DNA of 64,000 nt. Source: Thermoplasmata archaeon. GTDB lineage: Archaea > Thermoplasmatota > SW-10-69-26 > JACQPN01 > JAJPHT01. The stretch spans positions 11,610 to 75,609 of the forward strand of contig JAXDQU010000106.1 of NCBI GenBank assembly GCA_034667685.1. The letters run 5' to 3'. The notes under the pieces were generated by a model. It worked only from the letters and a program-made list of their open reading frames with translations. It was not told the DNA's origin and did no database searches. Positions within the stretch are counted from its first letter, which is position 1. Each line of letters starts with the position of its first letter. Positions 7,829 to 60,584 of the stretch are shown here, piece by piece. Position numbers and translations under genes: made by a program.

Positions 7829-7851
7829 GGGCGCCGCCCGACTTCTGGGCC

Positions 7852-8053
7852 GCATGCGACGCGGCGACGACGCGACGCGCGCGAAGGCGAAAAACTTCGA
7901 TTCGCTTGAGGAGTGACCCCGGCGAATACCCGAGAACCCGGGCACCCGCCGACCCGACCGTAGATGTCCCGCTCGGGTTTTCGGGTCGTCGGGTTCTCGG
8001 GTCTTCGCTGGGGTCACAAGCCAACATCGCGCGCCTCGCGCTCGCCGCACGCG
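7852..8053. mobile_element. MITE-like element, copy 1 (degenerate right end)
   Basis: Left terminus GCATGCGACGCGGCGACGACGCGACGCGCGCGA is near-identical to copy 2 at 23699. Internal long palindrome (GTGACCCC...CCCGAGAACCCGG // CGGGTTCTCGGG...GGGGTCAC). Confidence 0.4.
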
Positions 8054-8123
8054 CCGCATGCGGAGCCGCGCAGCGCCCGCGCGGCAGCGAACCTTTATCG
8101 GCGGCACGCCTGTCCCCGCCTTC

Positions 8124-11579: not shown

Positions 11580-13154
11580 CTACTTCACGTGCACCACGAA
11601 GCGGCACTTGGCGTCGCCGCGCGACTCGCACGAGACCTCCGCGCCGCGCGCCGGGGCGTCGCCGTGCAGGCGCGAGGCGGCGCCCGTCGCGTAGCCCAGG
11701 GCGAGATAGCACGTCGTGGCGCGCGAGCCGGGCGACTTCTCGAAGAGGTCCGAGCCGGTGAACTCGTAGCGCCCGGCGTCCGCGGAGGTCGTCTCGATGC
11801 GGCCCAGGCCCATCTCGGCGTAGGCGCGCGAGAAGGCGTCGAGGTCCTGGGCCTCCGCGGTGCGCGCGAGCGACTCGCCCAGCCGCAGCAGCGCGCTCGC
11901 GTCGGCGTGCGTCTCGTCCATCAGCGCGCGGACGATGCGGCGCACCAGCGGGCGCGCCACGCGCGAGGAGACCAGCCGCTCGCGCGCCTCGTCGAGCTCG
12001 TGGAGCGCGCGGGCGTTGGCGAGCGTGGCGGAGGCCTCGGCCGCGACGATGGCGAGGAGGTTGCGGTCCACCGGCGCGAAGCGCGCGTTGCTGCGCCGGT
12101 TCGGGTGGATCAGCAGCGCGCCCATCTTCGCGCCGCCGGGGCCTTCGAGCGTCGCGGCCATCGGCGGCTCGCTGCTCGCACCCCCTTCGAAGTCGAGGCT
12201 CCACCGGCGCTCGCGGCCGTCCTGCTCGACGACGAGCGTCGTGCGCCCCGCCTGGAAGACGTCGCCGCAGGTCTGGAGGATGCGCGTCGCGGCGCGCTCG
12301 AAGTCCTTCTCGCCCACCAGGGCGCGCGTCATCCCGCTGAGGCGATCGTGGACGAGCGCCTCCCTCTCGGTGCGCGCCACGAGGCCGACGTGCTCGCGCG
12401 CGAGGTAGGCGAAGGGCACGAGCGCCGCGACGGCCACGGGATGGACGTTCCAGAGCGCCCACGTCGCGAGCCCGCCCGCGATGCCCAGCGCGACGTGCAG
12501 CAGCGTGGGGATCCAGAAGCGCTCGCCGAAGACGACGTGGACCGCGACGCGCTCGCGCAGCGAGAAGACGCTGGAGACGAGGACGTGCGTGACGAAGGTG
12601 TAGGCGACGAGGGCGCCGCAGATGGCGACGAGGGGCGGCGCGACGAGCTGGAGGAAGAGGTACGTCGAGACGCAGGCGCCGCCCGCGAGCGCGAGGACGG
12701 CGACGTTGGCCGCGGCGCGCAGGAGCGGCCGGCGCGTCTTGACCTGGTAGGCCGTCATCGGCACGATGGCGAAGAGGACGACGAACGGCAGCGGCAGCGC
12801 GAGGAGGGCGAGGAAGACGAGCACCTCGTCGGGACCGAGGGCGATGCGCTGCCCGCGCCAGTCGAAGAGGATGAGCCGGTTGAGGATCAGCCACGAGGCG
12901 GCGACGAGCCCGGCCAGGAGAAGCCAGCGCGGCGCGTCCATGCTCCCCGTGGCGGTGGGGAGCGCCCAGAGCGCGGTGGCGAGCACGACGGCGCCACCCG
13001 CCGCGAGGGAAGCCAGGTACGGGTCCACGAGGCGCGTCGGGTCGAAGGGCTGCGCGGGAGCGTACGCGTTCGCCATCGGCCGACCCGTCACCCTTCCCCG
13101 TGGGGCGCCTTCTTCAGGGTGCCGCATGTCCGGATTCTCACGAACGATGCTCAT
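11580..13154 (-). CDS. membrane sensor protein: N-terminal polytopic TM domain, central GAF-like region, C-terminal V4R domain
   Basis: ~7 hydrophobic helices in the first 250 aa. The C-terminus (TTCYLALGYATGAASRLHG...EVSCESRGDAKCRFVV) matches the V4R (4-vinyl reductase-like) small-molecule-binding domain. Start could be an internal Met (MANAYAP). Confidence 0.55.
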   Translation of the reverse strand: MSIVRENPDMRHPEEGAPRGRVTGRPMANAYAPAQPFDPTRLVDPYLASLAAGGAVVLATALWALPTATGSMDAPRWLLLAGLVAASWLILNRLILFDWRGQRIALGPDEVLVFLALLALPLPFVVLFAIVPMTAYQVKTRRPLLRAAANVAVLALAGGACVSTYLFLQLVAPPLVAICGALVAYTFVTHVLVSSVFSLRERVAVHVVFGERFWIPTLLHVALGIAGGLATWALWNVHPVAVAALVPFAYLAREHVGLVARTEREALVHDRLSGMTRALVGEKDFERAATRILQTCGDVFQAGRTTLVVEQDGRERRWSLDFEGGASSEPPMAATLEGPGGAKMGALLIHPNRRSNARFAPVDRNLLAIVAAEASATLANARALHELDEARERLVSSRVARPLVRRIVRALMDETHADASALLRLGESLARTAEAQDLDAFSRAYAEMGLGRIETTSADAGRYEFTGSDLFEKSPGSRATTCYLALGYATGAASRLHGDAPARGAEVSCESRGDAKCRFVVHVK

Positions 13155-15305: not shown

Positions 15306-15308
15306 AGG

Positions 15309-15351
15309 GACTCGGGGCTCTGGACTCAAGGCTCCGGAGCCCCGAGTCCTG
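15309..15351 (+). repeat. hairpin (GGACTCGGGGCTC ... GAGCCCCGAGTCC) immediately 3' of the aminopeptidase gene
   Basis: 13-bp perfect inverted repeat with a ~17-nt loop, starting 4 nt after the stop codon. Confidence 0.4.
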
Positions 15352-15420
15352 AGCCCAGAGCCCCGAGCCCGCCACGTCTTTGCGATATGGTTTTCCCTCG
15401 CCGCCCCCTAGGCAAGCACG

Positions 15421-18616: not shown

Positions 18617-18638
18617 CGCTCGGCCCGCTCTCTTCCAG

Positions 18639-18706
18639 CCACAGAGGACACGGAGGTCACAGAGGCGACTCTTCTCGTCCCTCTGTGACCTCCGTGTCCT
18701 CTGTGG
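18639..18706 (+). repeat. perfect 27-bp inverted repeat (hairpin) between livG and livF
   Basis: CCACAGAGGACACGGAGGTCACAGAGG, 14-nt loop, CCTCTGTGACCTCCGTGTCCTCTGTGG. No T-tract follows. Confidence 0.9.
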
Positions 18707-18730
18707 ATGGCGTGAAGCAGGGGGCCGCGC

Positions 18731-23669: not shown

Positions 23670-23698
23670 GGTTTGTCCTCGCGGCTCGGCCGGCTCCG

Positions 23699-23892
23699 CA
23701 TGCGACGCGGCGACGGACGCGACGCGCGCGACGGCGGGCTTCGGTCGTCCATGCTGACCTCGGTGTGAACCCGACGGCCCGATGACCAGACTTTCACCCC
23801 GGGTTCTCGGGTTCGCGGGTCCTCGGGTTCCGCCAAGGTCACCAGCCCCGCGTCGCGCGCGTCGCGCCCGTCGCCGCGTCGCATGCGCAGCT
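23699..23892. mobile_element. MITE-like element, copy 2 (intact ~33-bp terminal inverted repeats)
   Basis: Left end GCATGCGACGCGGCGACGGACGCGACGCGCGCGA. Right end is its near-perfect reverse complement (...CGCGCGCGTCGCGCCCGTCGCCGCGTCGCATGC). Internal CGGGTTCTCGGGT motifs are shared with copy 1. Lies in the divergent intergenic region between the isochorismatase gene and speA. Confidence 0.45.
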
Positions 23893-23937
23893 GCGAAGCG
23901 TCGGCGCGGACCCGCCCCGACGAACAGCTTAAGGGAC

Positions 23938-37127: not shown

Positions 37128-37397
37128 GGGGTCACGCGGCCGCGCGTCCTTGGAGCTTGTGGAGCATTGCTTTCTTTCATCGAGAGGAACAGACAACCCC
37201 CCACGTGCTTTTGGAAACAATTCGTTATGTTAAGCTTCCTCGGTGAGCAGGTATCTAGCCTGCTCCCACGAGGCTGCATGGCACGATATACTTCCGCAAG
37301 TCACAACGATGGTCTAGTCTGTTACTTGCATGATGATATCCTTCGTGCCCCGGGCGACAGCTCGCCCGAGTGTGGAGGAATCCAATTGGCCAAAGAC

Positions 37398-54914: not shown

Positions 54915-56368
54915 GATAGCACGCTCCGCATCGCGTCGAGGGGCGCCTCGCGGCCCGTCCAGAGCTTGAACGCGCGCGCCCCCTGGTGCAGGAGCATCGC
55001 CCGCCCGTCCACCGCCACGAGACCGCGCGCGCGGGCCTCGCGGACCAGACGCGTGCCGCCCGGCCGGTAAACCGCATCGAGCAACGCCGCCCCGGACCCG
55101 AGACGCGCGACGTCGATCGGGCTTTCGTCCTGGTGGAGCCCCACCGTCGTGCAGTTCACGACGAGCGCAAAAGGAGCAGGGTCCGCGCCCCACGGCAGCA
55201 CGGCAAAGCCCAACGCCGCCGCCTTCTCGGCCGTCCGGTTGCTGACCGTCACGCGCGCCCCGGCGCCCGCCAACGCATGCGCCACGCCACGCGCCGCGCC
55301 CCCCGCGCCCAAAACGAGCGCACCGAGCCCGCGGACCGCGACACCCGCCTCGGCCAGCGCATCGAGCGCCCCCGCGCCATCCGTGTTGTGCGCCTCCACC
55401 TTGCCGTCGCGGAACACGAGCGCGTTGGCCGCGCCCGCCGCCCGCGCCTCCGGCGAGACGACGTCCACCAGGTCCAACGCCGCGACCTTGTGCGGCACCG
55501 TCAGGCTGACGCCCAAGGGCGGCGCGGCCCGAAAGCCCGCGATCGCCGCATCCAGGTTCTGCGGCGCGACGTCCAACGCAAGATAGCACGCATCGAGACC
55601 GAGCGCGCGGAACGCCGCGTTGTGCATCGCGGGCGAAAGCGAATGCGAGACGGGATGGCCCACGACGTAGGCCGCGCGCGTCGCCGCGCCGAAGCTAGAT
55701 CTGCTGAGATCTAGCTGGACCCGGCGCAGCGCGTCGAGGGGCACCTGCCCCGCGGTCGCGGCTGGCGCGCCGGGCACGCTGCCATACGCGAGCGCGAGGC
55801 CCAGCGCGGGCGCAAGCAGGCGCAGGAACGGATCGTTGACCGCCATGATCGCGCACGGGATCTTCTCCTGGCGGGCGCGTTGGGCGGCTTCGACGAGCGC
55901 GGCGGCGTCCTGCGGGCCCTGGACGAACGTGGCGATCTTGGCGACGTCGGCGCCCAGCGCGCGCATCTGACGCAGCGTGGCGAGGAGCGCGTCGGCGCTG
56001 GGCGTGCCGGCGAGGTCGTGCTGCGAGACGATCGCCTGGGCGTCCATGGCGTGGGCTTCGGCGACGAGGGCGCGCGCTTCGTCGTTGGCGAGCTCGACGT
56101 CGATCGCCTTGGCGCCGGCCCGGAGCGCGCGGCGGAGGATATCGTTCCGGGTCTTGTCGTCAGCATGGCTACGGCCGCCGTCGTCCGCGTGGCGCATGGT
56201 GGCGATGCAGGGCTTGGCGAAGCTGAAGAACGCGCGCAGGTCCCAGGGCAGGCCGCTGGGCCCGTCGAGGCGGATCTCGATCCAGTCGGCGTGGGCCTCG
56301 GCGGCCCGGGCGCGGGCGTAGAGCTCGTCGGGCGTCTCGCCGATGGCCGTCGCGACGAGGAGCGTCAT
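54911..56368 (-). CDS. aroDE: fused 3-dehydroquinate dehydratase (type I) / shikimate 5-dehydrogenase
   Basis: N-terminal type I DHQase (IEIRLD, catalytic Lys in DVAKIATF). C-terminal AroE (HSLSPAMHNAAF, NTDGAGALDAL, LVLGAGGAARGVA). Confidence 0.8.
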   Translation of the reverse strand: MTLLVATAIGETPDELYARARAAEAHADWIEIRLDGPSGLPWDLRAFFSFAKPCIATMRHADDGGRSHADDKTRNDILRRALRAGAKAIDVELANDEARALVAEAHAMDAQAIVSQHDLAGTPSADALLATLRQMRALGADVAKIATFVQGPQDAAALVEAAQRARQEKIPCAIMAVNDPFLRLLAPALGLALAYGSVPGAPAATAGQVPLDALRRVQLDLSRSSFGAATRAAYVVGHPVSHSLSPAMHNAAFRALGLDACYLALDVAPQNLDAAIAGFRAAPPLGVSLTVPHKVAALDLVDVVSPEARAAGAANALVFRDGKVEAHNTDGAGALDALAEAGVAVRGLGALVLGAGGAARGVAHALAGAGARVTVSNRTAEKAAALGFAVLPWGADPAPFALVVNCTTVGLHQDESPIDVARLGSGAALLDAVYRPGGTRLVREARARGLVAVDGRAMLLHQGARAFKLWTGREAPLDAMRSVLS

Positions 56369-57371: not shown

Positions 57372-58156
57372 AGGTCGCGGACCACCTCGTCCAGCGTGGC
57401 CTTGCCGTGGACGAGGCGGCCCACGGCGCGCGTGATGCCGGCGACGTCCTTGTGCTGCCAGAGGTTGCGTCCGACCGAGACGCCCGCGCCGCCCGCGGCG
57501 AGCGAGCCGGCGACCATCTCCAGGAAGGCGCGGTCGGTGTCGGCCTTGGGGCCGCCGCTGATGACGACGGGCACGTCCACGGACCGCACGACCTCGCGGA
57601 ACGTGTCGGGCGAGCCCGTGTAGGGGACCTTGATGATATCAGCGCCCAGCTCGTAGCCTAGGCGCGCGACCTTCTTGACGAGCTTGAGGTCGTGCGGGTT
57701 GGTGATCTCGTGGCCGCGCGGGTACATCATGGCCAGGAGCGGGAGGCCGTAGCGGTCGCAGTCGTCCGAGAGACGGCCCACGTCCTCGATCATGCGCGAC
57801 TCCTCGGGGCTGCCGACGTTCACGTGGACCGAGAGCCCGTCCGCGCCCAGGCGGAGCGCCTCCTCGACCGACGCGACGACGCGCTTGTCGTTGGGGTCGG
57901 GGTTGAGGCCCGTGCTGGCGCTCACGTGGAGCCACACGCCCATCCCGCCGACGCTGCCCGCCAGCGAGCGCACGACGCCCTTGTGGACGACGATGCTGTC
58001 GGCGCCGCCCCGCGCGACGGCGGCCGCGGTCTCGGCCGGCCGCTCCAGGCCGGGGAGGGGGCCGTCGCTGACGCCGTGGTCCATGGGGACGATGACGCCC
58101 TTGCCTTCCGCACCGAGGAGGCGGCGGAGCCGGAGCCGCTTGCCAACGCTTGTCAT
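57368..58156 (-). CDS. 2-amino-3,7-dideoxy-D-threo-hept-6-ulosonate (ADH) synthase, class I aldolase family (AroA')
   Basis: DhnA-type class I aldolase blocks (GVIVPMDHGV, Schiff-base Lys in ADIIKVPYTG). First gene of the aro operon. Start at MTSVGK. Confidence 0.75.
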   Translation of the reverse strand: MTSVGKRLRLRRLLGAEGKGVIVPMDHGVSDGPLPGLERPAETAAAVARGGADSIVVHKGVVRSLAGSVGGMGVWLHVSASTGLNPDPNDKRVVASVEEALRLGADGLSVHVNVGSPEESRMIEDVGRLSDDCDRYGLPLLAMMYPRGHEITNPHDLKLVKKVARLGYELGADIIKVPYTGSPDTFREVVRSVDVPVVISGGPKADTDRAFLEMVAGSLAAGGAGVSVGRNLWQHKDVAGITRAVGRLVHGKATLDEVVRDL

Positions 58157-58284
58157 GGTCTGTCGAGGGTGTATACGCGCGGGCATATCAAGACATTGCT
58201 CCGCAAGATTGGTCATCGCCACTGTCCAGAAGTCGCCATTCTGGAAGGATTTATGACTCCGCTGCGCATCCTCGATCATTGGCC

Positions 58285-58785
58285 ATGTGGGACCTTCTCA
58301 CGCGCTACTTCCAGCGCTTCCCCGCCCAGAGCCGCGTCGCCCAGACGCTCCTCACCCAGGGACTGAGCGTGCGCGACGACGGCGTCTACTCGGGAGAGGT
58401 CGCCATCAGCGACACGGCCCTCGCCCGCGCGTGCGGCGTCGACCGGCGCATCATCGCCGCCACGGTCGAGACCATCCGCCGCGAGCCGGAGCTCCAGAAG
58501 GTCTACTCGCGTCTCCAACCCACCGGCCTCCTCAAGGACGTCGCGCCGCAGCTGCGCTGGGGCGTCATCGAGATCGTCCCCAGCGACGCGCGCGAGCCCG
58601 GCATCCTCGCCCACGTCGCCACCGTCATCGCCAAGCGCGGGCTCTCCATCCGCCAGGCCATCGTCGACGACCCCGACCTCGTCGAGGAGCCGCGCCTCTA
58701 CGTCATCACGGAAGCGCAGGTGCCCATGGACGTCATCAGCGAGATCCGCGAAGGGCACGGCATCAAGAGCGTCGTGATCTCGTAA
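58285..58785 (+). CDS. ACT-domain regulator of amino-acid metabolism (COG2150-like) with N-terminal HTH
   Basis: HTH-like SDTALARACGVDRRIIAATVETIRRE. C-terminal ACT-like GILAHVATVIAKRGLSIRQAIVDD. Divergent from the aro operon, which is a common archaeal arrangement. Start at MWDLL. Confidence 0.55.
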   Translation: MWDLLTRYFQRFPAQSRVAQTLLTQGLSVRDDGVYSGEVAISDTALARACGVDRRIIAATVETIRREPELQKVYSRLQPTGLLKDVAPQLRWGVIEIVPSDAREPGILAHVATVIAKRGLSIRQAIVDDPDLVEEPRLYVITEAQVPMDVISEIREGHGIKSVVIS

Positions 58786-58805
58786 CGGCGCGCGGACTTG
58801 TTTCC

Positions 58806-58975
58806 TGCAACGTGTTCCGTGCTTCCGTGCAACGTGAACGTGGAACGAACGCCGTGAACGAGAACGTGAACGACCGTCCCGGCTAGATCTGGCCAGATCT
58901 AGCCGAGCCGCGGCGCCGTCCTGCCGTTCACGTTCACGGCCAACGTTCACGTCGCACGTTGCACGGGACGCGCCC
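58806..58975. repeat. complex inverted-repeat region with >=7 GTGAACG/CGTTCAC-type motifs around a perfect 24-bp palindrome GGCTAGATCTGGCCAGATCTAGCC (58881..58904)
   Basis: Left arm TGCAACGTGAACGTGGAACGAACGCCGTGAACGAGAACGTGAACG. Right arm is its imperfect reverse complement (CCGTTCACGTTCACGGCCAACGTTCACGTCGCACGTTGCACG). Confidence 0.8.
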
Positions 58976-59003
58976 AAGTCGCCTGCGCCTGGAGCAAGCC
59001 ATC

Positions 59004-59495
59004 ATGTGCTCGCCGCGGGTTGAGGACGGCGTGCGCCCCCGCATGGTCTGGTACCGCTACCGGCGCGAGTTCCCGCACGGCGCGCAGGAATGCTATCGGT
59101 GGCTCACGGACTACCAAGACCACGACCCCGACCTGGCCAACCGGAACATCCTCCAGGAGCGGCAGGTCGAGTCGCGCAGCCCGGAGCGCGTCGTGATGCG
59201 CGTGCGCAACGACGTCCTGGGGCGCAGCATGGCCGGGCGCGCGGAGGTGCGCCTGTTCCCCGAGGAATTGCGCTACGAGGCGCGCCCGCTCGAAGGCGAT
59301 GGCGGCGGCCTTCTCTACACCTATCGGCTCACGCCCCTGGGGCCCGGCCGCGCGCGGCTGGAGGTCGCCTACGGGCACCGCGCGCGGAAGCTGAAGCGCT
59401 GGCTTCAGCTGCAGCTCGCGCGCCTGGCCGCGCTGCGCCGCATCGCGCGCATGTGGGACGGGTTCGCCGACGCGATGGCGAAGGACCTGGGCTGA
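59004..59495 (+). CDS. SRPBCC (START/polyketide-cyclase-like) family protein
   Basis: MVWYRYRREFPHGAQECYRWLTDYQDHDPDL N-terminal beta-strand/helix pattern resembling SRPBCC ligand-binding proteins. Weak assignment. Confidence 0.4.
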   Translation: MCSPRVEDGVRPRMVWYRYRREFPHGAQECYRWLTDYQDHDPDLANRNILQERQVESRSPERVVMRVRNDVLGRSMAGRAEVRLFPEELRYEARPLEGDGGGLLYTYRLTPLGPGRARLEVAYGHRARKLKRWLQLQLARLAALRRIARMWDGFADAMAKDLG

Positions 59496-59813
59496 ACGCC
59501 TGGCGCGCCGAAGCGGATTCGGGGGCAGGTTCATCTGATCCGGCGGCCAAGCACAGGCCACATGCCTGGCCGCAAGAACCCGTCGAGCCACGACAACGAG
59601 GACCTGCGCGACTTCCGCCGCTTCCAGGCGCGCCTGCGCGGCGAAGGCGTCGTGGGCGACCAGGCGCCCGGCATGGACATCCTCGCCTCGCCGCGGCCGG
59701 ACGCTGAAGTCCGGCGGTCGAAGCACCGCGAGAATTTTAGGCGATAGGGGGTTCGGGGGCGCAGCCCCAACGTCTGGACCTCGTCTCAACCTGGGGTTGA
59801 GATTCCGTTCGCG

Positions 59814-60584
59814 CTACGTGAAGCCCGCGCGACTCTCGATGACCACACTTTGGATGACCGTCTCAGGCACGAATCGCGCGTCCATGTCCGACGCAGCCGG
59901 TCCGGTGAGGTCCCGGACGTAGAATCCGTCGGGCGTCTGAGCCACGAAGAAGAACGTCTGGTTGTCCAGGTCGGACGGGGCCGTCGTGTGGAGCGTGACT
60001 ACCTTGTAGCTTGAGCGATGGGCAAGCGCGTCGTCGGCGGCGTTCCTGCCAAGCTCGGAGGCGCCGAACGTGACGAAAGCGACGACGAGGAACACGCCGA
60101 GCGCGAGCATCCCAAGCGAGGACGCAGTCTCCGGGTCCTTCCGCTGCCACCTGCGGACGAGAAGAACGCCCACCACGCAAGCCACAATGAGCAGGAGCAC
60201 CAGGCCGATGCCCCAATCCTGCGCGATGGGGCGCCCCGCAAGGGTCAGCGTGGTCACGGCGTGTGGCGTGAACGAGCTGAGCAGGAAGATGAACGCGACG
60301 ATGATCGTCAACACAGCGATCTCGGCAGACGTTGCTTCACGAGGCAACCGTCGGAACTGGACGAAGAAGCGGCGGACCAGGATCGCGGCGCCGCCGAGGA
60401 CCACCAACCACATCGACATGACGAAGCCTTGGATCACGAGGGTCTGCGGCGCACGGACGATGACGTTCTCGGGCACGCGCATTCGGACGTCGTAGGACGC
60501 GAACCAGAGCGTGCCCATGAACAGCCAAGCGCCCGTGACGAGGGCGACGAGGAATGCGCCATCGAGGGGGCGAGGCAACTTCAT
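59814..60584 (-). CDS. hypothetical polytopic membrane protein
   Basis: ~5 TM helices and a C-terminal soluble tail. Start at MKLPRP. Confidence 0.4.
   Translation of the reverse strand: MKLPRPLDGAFLVALVTGAWLFMGTLWFASYDVRMRVPENVIVRAPQTLVIQGFVMSMWLVVLGGAAILVRRFFVQFRRLPREATSAEIAVLTIIVAFIFLLSSFTPHAVTTLTLAGRPIAQDWGIGLVLLLIVACVVGVLLVRRWQRKDPETASSLGMLALGVFLVVAFVTFGASELGRNAADDALAHRSSYKVVTLHTTAPSDLDNQTFFFVAQTPDGFYVRDLTGPAASDMDARFVPETVIQSVVIESRAGFT

Follow-up and report, generated by a model that had tools for sequence, protein, structure and literature searches.

A nested quasi-palindrome of mirrored hexamer repeats between a TrpY-family regulator gene and an SRPBCC gene in a soil Thermoplasmata archaeon

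The DNA considered here, referred to below as the window, is a stretch of 64,000 nt (positions 11,610 to 75,609 of contig JAXDQU010000106.1, assembly GCA_034667685.1) from a 111.8-kb JGI metagenome contig belonging to a soil Thermoplasmata metagenome-assembled genome (MAG), with a GC content of ~72%. Our subject is a repeat-rich nested palindrome in the spacer between two genes on the same strand, an extragenic and intercistronic position. The upstream gene (58285–58785, forward strand) encodes a transcription regulator with an ACT domain and a tryptophan at residue 2. An initial annotation, made from the sequence alone, had called it simply an ACT regulator; the domain is present, and a fuller identity can be given, as the whole length of the protein is covered by a 193-bit match to the NCBIfam model NF053754 (“TrpY family transcription regulator”), whose cut-off is 180. 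The downstream gene (59043–59495, forward strand) encodes an SRPBCC/Polyketide_cyc2-like protein whose homologs carry PF10604. Its start is best placed at 59043, since ATGGTCTGGTA at that position is conserved in homologs, giving a spacer of 257 bp; counted to the first ATG (59004) the spacer is 218 bp, rather than the 173 bp first reported.

The element is built as a series of nested, mirrored parts, none of which is assigned to a strand. Outermost are the two sides of a stem, GGCGCG.G GACTTG at 58787–58800 and CAAGTC.C.TGCGCC at 58975–58989, which pair with each other in the minimum free energy (MFE) helices. Inside these, the left arm (58806–58872) holds TGCAACGTG, an 8-nt tandem duplication (TTCCGTGC twice, 58815–58830), and a decayed array of about seven copies of CGTGAA, while the right arm (58925–58972), which mirrors it, has a decayed array of about six copies of CGTTCA followed by CACGTTGCA and, at its end, CGGGACGCG. 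Tandem Repeats Finder (TRF) reports the left array as period 6 with 7.3 copies (58826–58872), the right as period 6 with 6.3 copies (58925–58965), and the center as period 10 with 2.4 copies. When the left arm is compared by eye, and from the TRF output, with the reverse complement of the right, it is seen to have two additions, the 8-nt tandem duplication and one extra hexamer. Between the arms is a perfect palindrome at 58880–58905, CGGCTAGATCTGG/CCAGATCTAGCCG, with 13 nt on each side and no spacer. It is thus 26 bp long, slightly more than the 24 bp originally given; otherwise the repeat-rich palindrome described between the two genes is real, and the three sequence strings quoted for it are found at 58828–58872, 58881–58904, and 58925–58963. 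This core contains two AGATCT sites 10 bp apart, with TGGCCA at its center, and has AGATC twice on each strand. AGATCT itself is not significantly enriched in the window (nine copies vs. 6.1 expected). The heptamer GTGAACG, by which the arrays were first noticed, occurs three times on the forward strand (58834, 58854, and 58866) and three times on the reverse strand (58925, 58931, and 58944), all within 117 bp. These are six of the 16 copies in the window, where dinucleotide shuffles lead one to expect 7.0 ± 2.7 over the whole 64 kb.

Folding predictions agree with this anatomy. The mirrored arms, taken as 42 nt each, are 76% complementary, and the MFE helices form a long hairpin of 75 pairs spanning 58787–58989 (~203 nt). 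Folded as RNA, the element region has a predicted energy of −113.3 kcal/mol, compared to −84.1 ± 4.7 for shuffled sequences (z = −6.2); the DNA structure prediction proposed in the initial annotation gives a similar picture, with z = −6.7. In a GC-corrected sliding-window fold of the whole window, the element, which is 64% GC, ranks third among hairpin outliers. No known structured RNA accounts for it: an Rfam search of 58000–60000 at E ≤ 1 found nothing in the spacer and just one sub-threshold match, to sR22 and inside the regulator gene, and a tRNA/tmRNA scan of the window found none.

The possibility that such a structure is a product of misassembly was considered and is ruled out. Two JGI assemblies carry the identical element, and two Logan contigs from a single run, overlapping by k−1, rebuild it; since these agree, it is not an assembly artifact. 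The sequence is identical in four samples, which represent one strain. Logan unitigs from two sequencing runs do, however, break on one shared 30-mer, where a hexamer unit ends (window positions 58843–58872, seen at the ends of L002 and L004 and at the start of L197). This shared break implies a branch in the assembly graph, due either to polymorphism in repeat number or to a second copy of the arm.

Beyond this strain-level lineage, to which it is confined, the element has not been found. Of the regulator's many relatives, nine were compared through the contigs that carry them. In three of them, with regulators ~85% identical and SRPBCC proteins 73% identical, the two genes are adjacent with a 58-bp spacer and no array. 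In a fourth (L011) they are parted by a different insert of ~790 bp with an ORF, and in the remaining five (L005–L007, L133, with a regulator 95% identical, and L134, with one 92% identical), other genes directly follow the regulator. These nine differ in gene order downstream, and none of them, the syntenic ones included, has the array; synteny therefore breaks at the 3′ side of the regulator gene, and the element is peculiar to a single strain-level lineage. Searches aimed at the sequence itself gave little more. Blastn found no match among plasmids and phages, and the element's stop-free translation had none among predicted proteins, nor were spurious ORFs found at other copies. In a metagenome scan for three GTGAACG units, most of the matches listed were microsatellites of unrelated kinds, (GGTGAAC)n and (GTGAAC)n, and a scan of viral contigs with the core pattern returned six matches.

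In architecture, as distinct from sequence, the element is not alone. It looks like one of a class of mirrored short-repeat hairpins in the source genome, with at least five further members, each consisting of short tandem units, of its own kind, mirrored around a small center. The top three hairpin outliers of the window (18635–18710, 7913–8017, and the element) are all in spacers between ORFs, with mirrored short units and a different motif in each. The strongest, at 18635–18710, is based on (CACAGAGGN)3, is 97% complementary, and separates two genes for ABC ATPases in a branched-chain amino-acid transporter cluster; another, at 15307–15370 with GGCTC/GGACTC units, is just upstream of the permease gene of the same cluster. 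Both begin 2–19 nt past stop codons. The outlier at 7913–8017 has ACCCG-type units, and a hairpin at 23693–23891 has GCGACG-rich arms. The regions around these last two (7850–8070 and 23690–23895) represent the same dispersed family of nested palindromes, in two copies of ~200 bp with nearly identical outer arms, CCGCATGCGACGCGGCGACG(G)ACGCGACGCGCGCGA and the inverse, and inner mirrored arrays of ACCCG/CGGGT type. One of them, upstream of an aIF2-beta/TRAM gene, runs into its start codon, and the other is between divergent isochorismatase and arginine decarboxylase genes. Units of GGACC/GGTCC are mirrored in a further array, with arms of 52 nt, at L001 19436–19627 (equivalent to 67720–67911, just past the window), between two divergent small ORFs. 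Mirrored short-tandem-repeat hairpins thus recur about once per 11 kb of the sequence examined, and they may merit specialist attention.

Taken together, we would give roughly even chances to the explanation that the element is a lineage-specific, structural nested quasi-palindrome, acting at most as a stem-loop between two genes, and not a conserved sequence-specific site. Either strand would fold into the ~203-nt hairpin, and the duplex could extrude a cruciform. It may have originated by insertion of a palindromic repeat, or by an inverted duplication arising through template switching, with replication slippage afterwards. Two reports describe template switching as able both to create hairpin stems and to extend them (PMC8794818, PMC13100816). 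The 8-nt duplication and extra hexamer on the left arm are the expected remnant of slippage after an inverted duplication, and a recent event of template switching, or one templated by a hairpin, would fit with a core that is perfect and lacks a spacer while its arms are imperfect. As to function, the spacer has no run of T longer than three and no TATA-like element of the TTTATG type seen upstream of the regulator gene was apparent in it by eye, which makes it plausible that the regulator and SRPBCC genes are co-transcribed. On a likely bicistronic transcript, the stem-loop might serve as a partial terminator, a roadblock, or a barrier protecting the 3′ end, and would so uncouple expression of the SRPBCC gene from that of the regulator gene, akin to the intercistronic palindromes of bacterial REP/BIME type (repetitive extragenic palindromic sequences and bacterial interspersed mosaic elements). 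In vivo in Haloferax volcanii, an archaeon that is likewise rich in GC, partial termination was obtained with a hairpin and, separately, with the motif AGATC (PMC7237163).

Several points weigh against this explanation, or at least against its functional part. Both transcription through the element and any effect of it on transcription are things that we infer. There is no run of A or T longer than 3 nt anywhere in 58786–59042, the longest T-run being TTT, and hence no oligo-T terminator signal; scans for intrinsic terminators and sigma-70 promoters found no site, with neither a T-tract after the hairpin nor an archaeal oligo-T run. The initial suggestion of a large cruciform or terminator therefore holds for the hairpin, while the T-tail or oligo-T signal is not present. 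The sense strand has no folding advantage (−95.2 kcal/mol for the forward strand, −106.8 for the reverse, with G–U pairs more numerous on the antisense), so there is no evidence for selection at the RNA level. Two members of the hairpin class are between divergent genes, a placement easier to reconcile with an origin at the DNA level or as selfish sequence than with a role as terminator. The spacer is too diverged from those of syntenic relatives for alignment to reveal a clean empty site or a target-site duplication. No second copy was found by blastn in ~69 kb of the genome (the window plus an extra 4.8 kb of L001), where the only matches were self or mirror matches and a short twin of the core, so membership in a dispersed family is unproven; and this explanation does not account for that twin, which is within the nearby aroDE gene.

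The twin is part of the chromosomal setting upstream of the regulator gene, where an archaeal-type aro operon is encoded on the opposite strand, with genes for a DeoC-type ADH synthase (aroA′) and DHQ synthase II, aroDE, and further genes. At 55693–55716 (no strand assigned), inside the variable linker between the AroD and AroE parts of aroDE, is AGCTAGATCT-GCTG-AGATCTAGCT, which shares both 9-nt arms with the core of the element 3.2 kb away and differs in the central four bases (GCTG vs. GGCC). The pattern CTAGATCT-N4-AGATCTAG occurs twice in the 64 kb, against 0.01 expected, and all four copies of CTAGATC in the window are in these two sites. The aroDE copy encodes QLDLSRSS with four codons ending in A or T, in a genome where the GC content of third codon positions (GC3) is ~0.9. 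It is absent from the same position in three relatives (L005–L007). An ectopic copy event, a small mobile palindrome, and a paired protein site are all possible origins, and the duplication of a 20-bp AT-rich palindrome between the element and a protein-linker region is another feature that may merit specialist attention.

Between aroA′ and the trpY-like gene, which are divergent, is a promoter region (58169–58284) in which TATA-like elements flank the hexamers TGGTCA (58210) and TGTCCA (58223), 13 bp apart. Most relatives have a comparable arrangement, with two hexamers ~13 bp apart between two TATA-like elements (TGTACG/TGTACA, TGTGCA/TGGACG, TGTGCA/TGTCCG, and TGGACA/TGCACC). Judging from this pattern, the TGKNCA box pair is the likely TrpY-type operator, and it is the site with which the array is compared below. 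Two further features of the window may be recorded here. For the DeoC-type aroA′ gene, the start as called (58279) probably precedes the true one by 37 codons, as relatives start at a conserved CTTGTCATGG near 58168. The most AT-rich 160 nt of the window are at 37221–37380 (GC 0.54), followed by ~5.5 kb, to 42780, with GC of 0.78–0.80 and no ORF supported by a GC3-based caller.

Arrays like those of the element also occur in other organisms. A genome collection with one genome per species, which does not include the source MAG, was scanned with the pattern GAACGTGAACG-N30-60-CGTTCACGTTC. It matched at 56 sites, compared to about 1–2 expected by our own arithmetic (some fifty times the chance level), and all are bacterial. 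Most are mirrored hexamer arrays of (GAACGT)n type, although by eye a few resemble coding or otherwise conserved sequence. Half come from just eight genomes: Desulfobacterales HSG2 with seven; Sorangium cellulosum, a Myxococcales MAG, and a Sandaracinaceae MAG with four each; a Phycisphaerales MAG with three; and three others with two each. In the arrays at two Phycisphaerales loci, the enclosed center is a terminator-like hairpin followed by a T-tail. No Rfam match was found at the hairpin in any of the bacterial loci scanned, and we know of no published name for this class. Two observations from the same scan stand apart. In S. cellulosum So ce26, long mirrored arrays of CGTCTCT and CGTGAA types surround a conserved center of ~50 nt at four loci (L137, L140, L148, and L169); this looks like a dispersed repeat family and has no Rfam match. 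MAGs labeled Opitutus, Acidobacterium, and cyanobacterium (L141, L176, and L184) share a nearly identical stretch of ~150 nt around GAACGTGAACGACC...GGTCGTTCACGTTC, for which a mobile element is one possibility and a conserved structured RNA another; the L141 stretch has no Rfam match.

The presence of a TrpY-family gene beside the element raises the alternative that the array is an operator, on whose TRP-box-like hexamers and TGGCCA palindrome the adjacent regulator would assemble cooperatively, either controlling the SRPBCC gene or being titrated. TrpY reportedly assembles cooperatively, on TRP boxes with a TGTACA consensus. TrpY of Methanothermobacter, as summarized in PMC6737238, binds to several such boxes where the promoters of trpY and the trp operon overlap, a precedent that makes the idea a reasonable one. 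In M. thermautotrophicus, as here, several hexameric boxes are found by a TrpY-family regulator gene and have the core GTNCA in common; the pattern xGKNCA recurs both in the array units and in the promoter boxes described above, and the palindrome center fits TGKNCA exactly. However, only this central TGGCCA fits the box pattern fully. The array unit CGTTCA matches five of six positions, with C replacing the T that all of the listed boxes have at position 1. The units abut, with spacings of 4–9 bp vs. 13 bp between the promoter boxes, and they are located 3′ of the regulator gene, whereas TRP boxes, like the conserved pair at 58210 and 58223, are in the divergent promoter. Relatives with 85–95% identical regulators keep the promoter boxes and lack the array. 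Nor is GTGAACG enriched elsewhere in the window: outside the element there are 10 copies, where ~7 would be expected over all 64 kb, close to its chance frequency. Hairpins of like build in the same genome use unrelated units, and mirrored (GTGAAC)n arrays are common in bacteria, none of which, to our knowledge, carries TrpY; the restriction of the 56 sites to bacteria indicates that such arrays arise independently of this regulator. The cooperative binding first proposed thus has the right kind of neighbor in its favor, with position, box sequence, conservation, and motif frequency all against it, and we regard an operator as unlikely. Still more doubtful is an elaboration of the same idea, a lineage-specific “super-operator” in which the mirrored degenerate arrays nucleate the regulator around the TGGCCA palindrome, possibly looped with the aroDE twin 3.2 kb away; it would link both the SRPBCC gene and the aro operon to the sensing of aromatic amino acids, or else buffer the concentration of free regulator. 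Equally hard to credit is a version in which the arms are incidental and the core and its twin are paired recognition sites for a site-specific DNA-binding or recombination protein, with the regulator gene and a 5′ portion of the aro operon lying between them, for instance to allow DNA looping. The excess of the pair over expectation and the confinement of CTAGATC to the two sites speak for it, and the A/T-ending codons of the aroDE copy suggest either constraint at the DNA level or a recent copy event. On the other side, neither site is conserved in relatives, the central bases differ, no further copies are present in the loci compared, and a single ectopic copy event (gene conversion or template switching over 3.2 kb) explains the pair equally well. 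A dif/Xer-like site was also considered and dropped, the site being unconserved and its twin being inside a gene.

A replication origin with repeats resembling origin recognition boxes (ORB or mini-ORB) is excluded. The arrangement is an inverted one, and GTGGAAC weakly resembles the mini-ORB core, a likeness pointed out in the initial annotation, which also remarked that no orc1/cdc6 gene or AT-rich unwinding element was nearby. That remark is borne out by Pfam calls within ±10 kb and by the run-length check: the only Walker-A ORFs in the window are the two ABC ATPases and a MeaB GTPase, and the region, 64% GC with no A/T run above 3 nt, has no AT-rich stretch. The repeats are hexamer microsatellites, close relatives lack the element, and cumulative GC skew, suggested as a check, makes no visible turn at this position. 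A less remote alternative, if still a rather improbable one, is that the element is a selfish or neutral non-autonomous insertion, similar to a miniature inverted-repeat transposable element (MITE) or REP, settled in a permissive spacer with no host function, and that its mirrored arms are terminal inverted repeats. Its presence/absence relative to syntenic relatives is as expected from this, the downstream side of the regulator gene being not only a synteny breakpoint but an insertion hot-spot; the same genome holds a genuine two-copy nested-palindrome family of similar size; and another copy might explain the branch in the assembly graph seen at the arm in two samples. Against these are the absence of a second copy in the ~69 kb, of any protein-level match for the stop-free translation and any plasmid or phage match, and of any transposase gene in the 10 kb on either side. 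No target-site duplication is seen at the arm ends, where the flanking sequences (TTTCC and CGGGA) do not form a direct repeat, and the arms themselves resemble decaying microsatellites and not conserved transposase-binding ends. Among these explanations a structural quasi-palindrome remains the one we prefer, and the locus itself is probably ordinary. It does carry a caution, that a statistically striking motif array beside a regulator gene should not be taken as the sign of a regulon. In this instance an operator is disfavored alike by where the array lies, by its box sequence, and by its lack of conservation.

Among known systems, the REP/BIME palindromes of bacteria are extragenic, often intercistronic, imperfect, and variable among strains, with a structural role as barriers at mRNA 3′ ends or as partial terminators. 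REPs are ~35 bp long, of conserved sequence, present in hundreds of copies, and tied to RAYT transposases, with examples in E. coli between malE and malF and between hisJ and hisQ. The element resembles them as an intercistronic stem-loop, and its sister hairpins in the source genome flank transporter-cluster genes. It differs in its length of ~200 bp, in being a singleton in the DNA examined, in its hexamer-microsatellite build, and in its archaeal host; Pfam calls found no RAYT gene within ±10 kb.

MITEs and other nested dispersed repeats (archaeal MITEs; Correia/NEMIS elements; enterobacterial repetitive intergenic consensus, or ERIC, sequences; and Rickettsia palindromic elements, or RPEs) are closer in size, at 100–250 bp, and have long inverted arms, a presence/absence distribution, and a habit of inserting into spacers. 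Terminal inverted repeats as in MITEs are found here in the form of the 42-nt, 76% complementary arms, and the in-frame insertion of RPEs into coding regions recalls the twin of the core in the aroDE linker. The element departs from all of these in that no target-site duplication, second full copy, or related transposase was found for it, and in that its arms are decayed tandem repeats.

Quasi-palindromes made by template switching and then altered by slippage, as described in the two reports cited above (PMC8794818, PMC13100816), have the same perfect center and the same imperfect arms differing by whole repeat units, and are likewise lineage-specific. They represent a mutational mechanism and not a functional family, and its action at this locus is proposed from the anatomy. 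The bacterial mirrored (GAACGT)n hairpins of Sorangium, Myxococcales, Sandaracinaceae, Phycisphaerales, and Desulfobacterales have the same hexamer unit and the same mirror build around a short central hairpin, in several copies per genome; two Phycisphaerales centers have a T-tail, which the archaeal core lacks. The recurrence of this design suggests a general route by which slippage and template switching grow long stems at gene boundaries.

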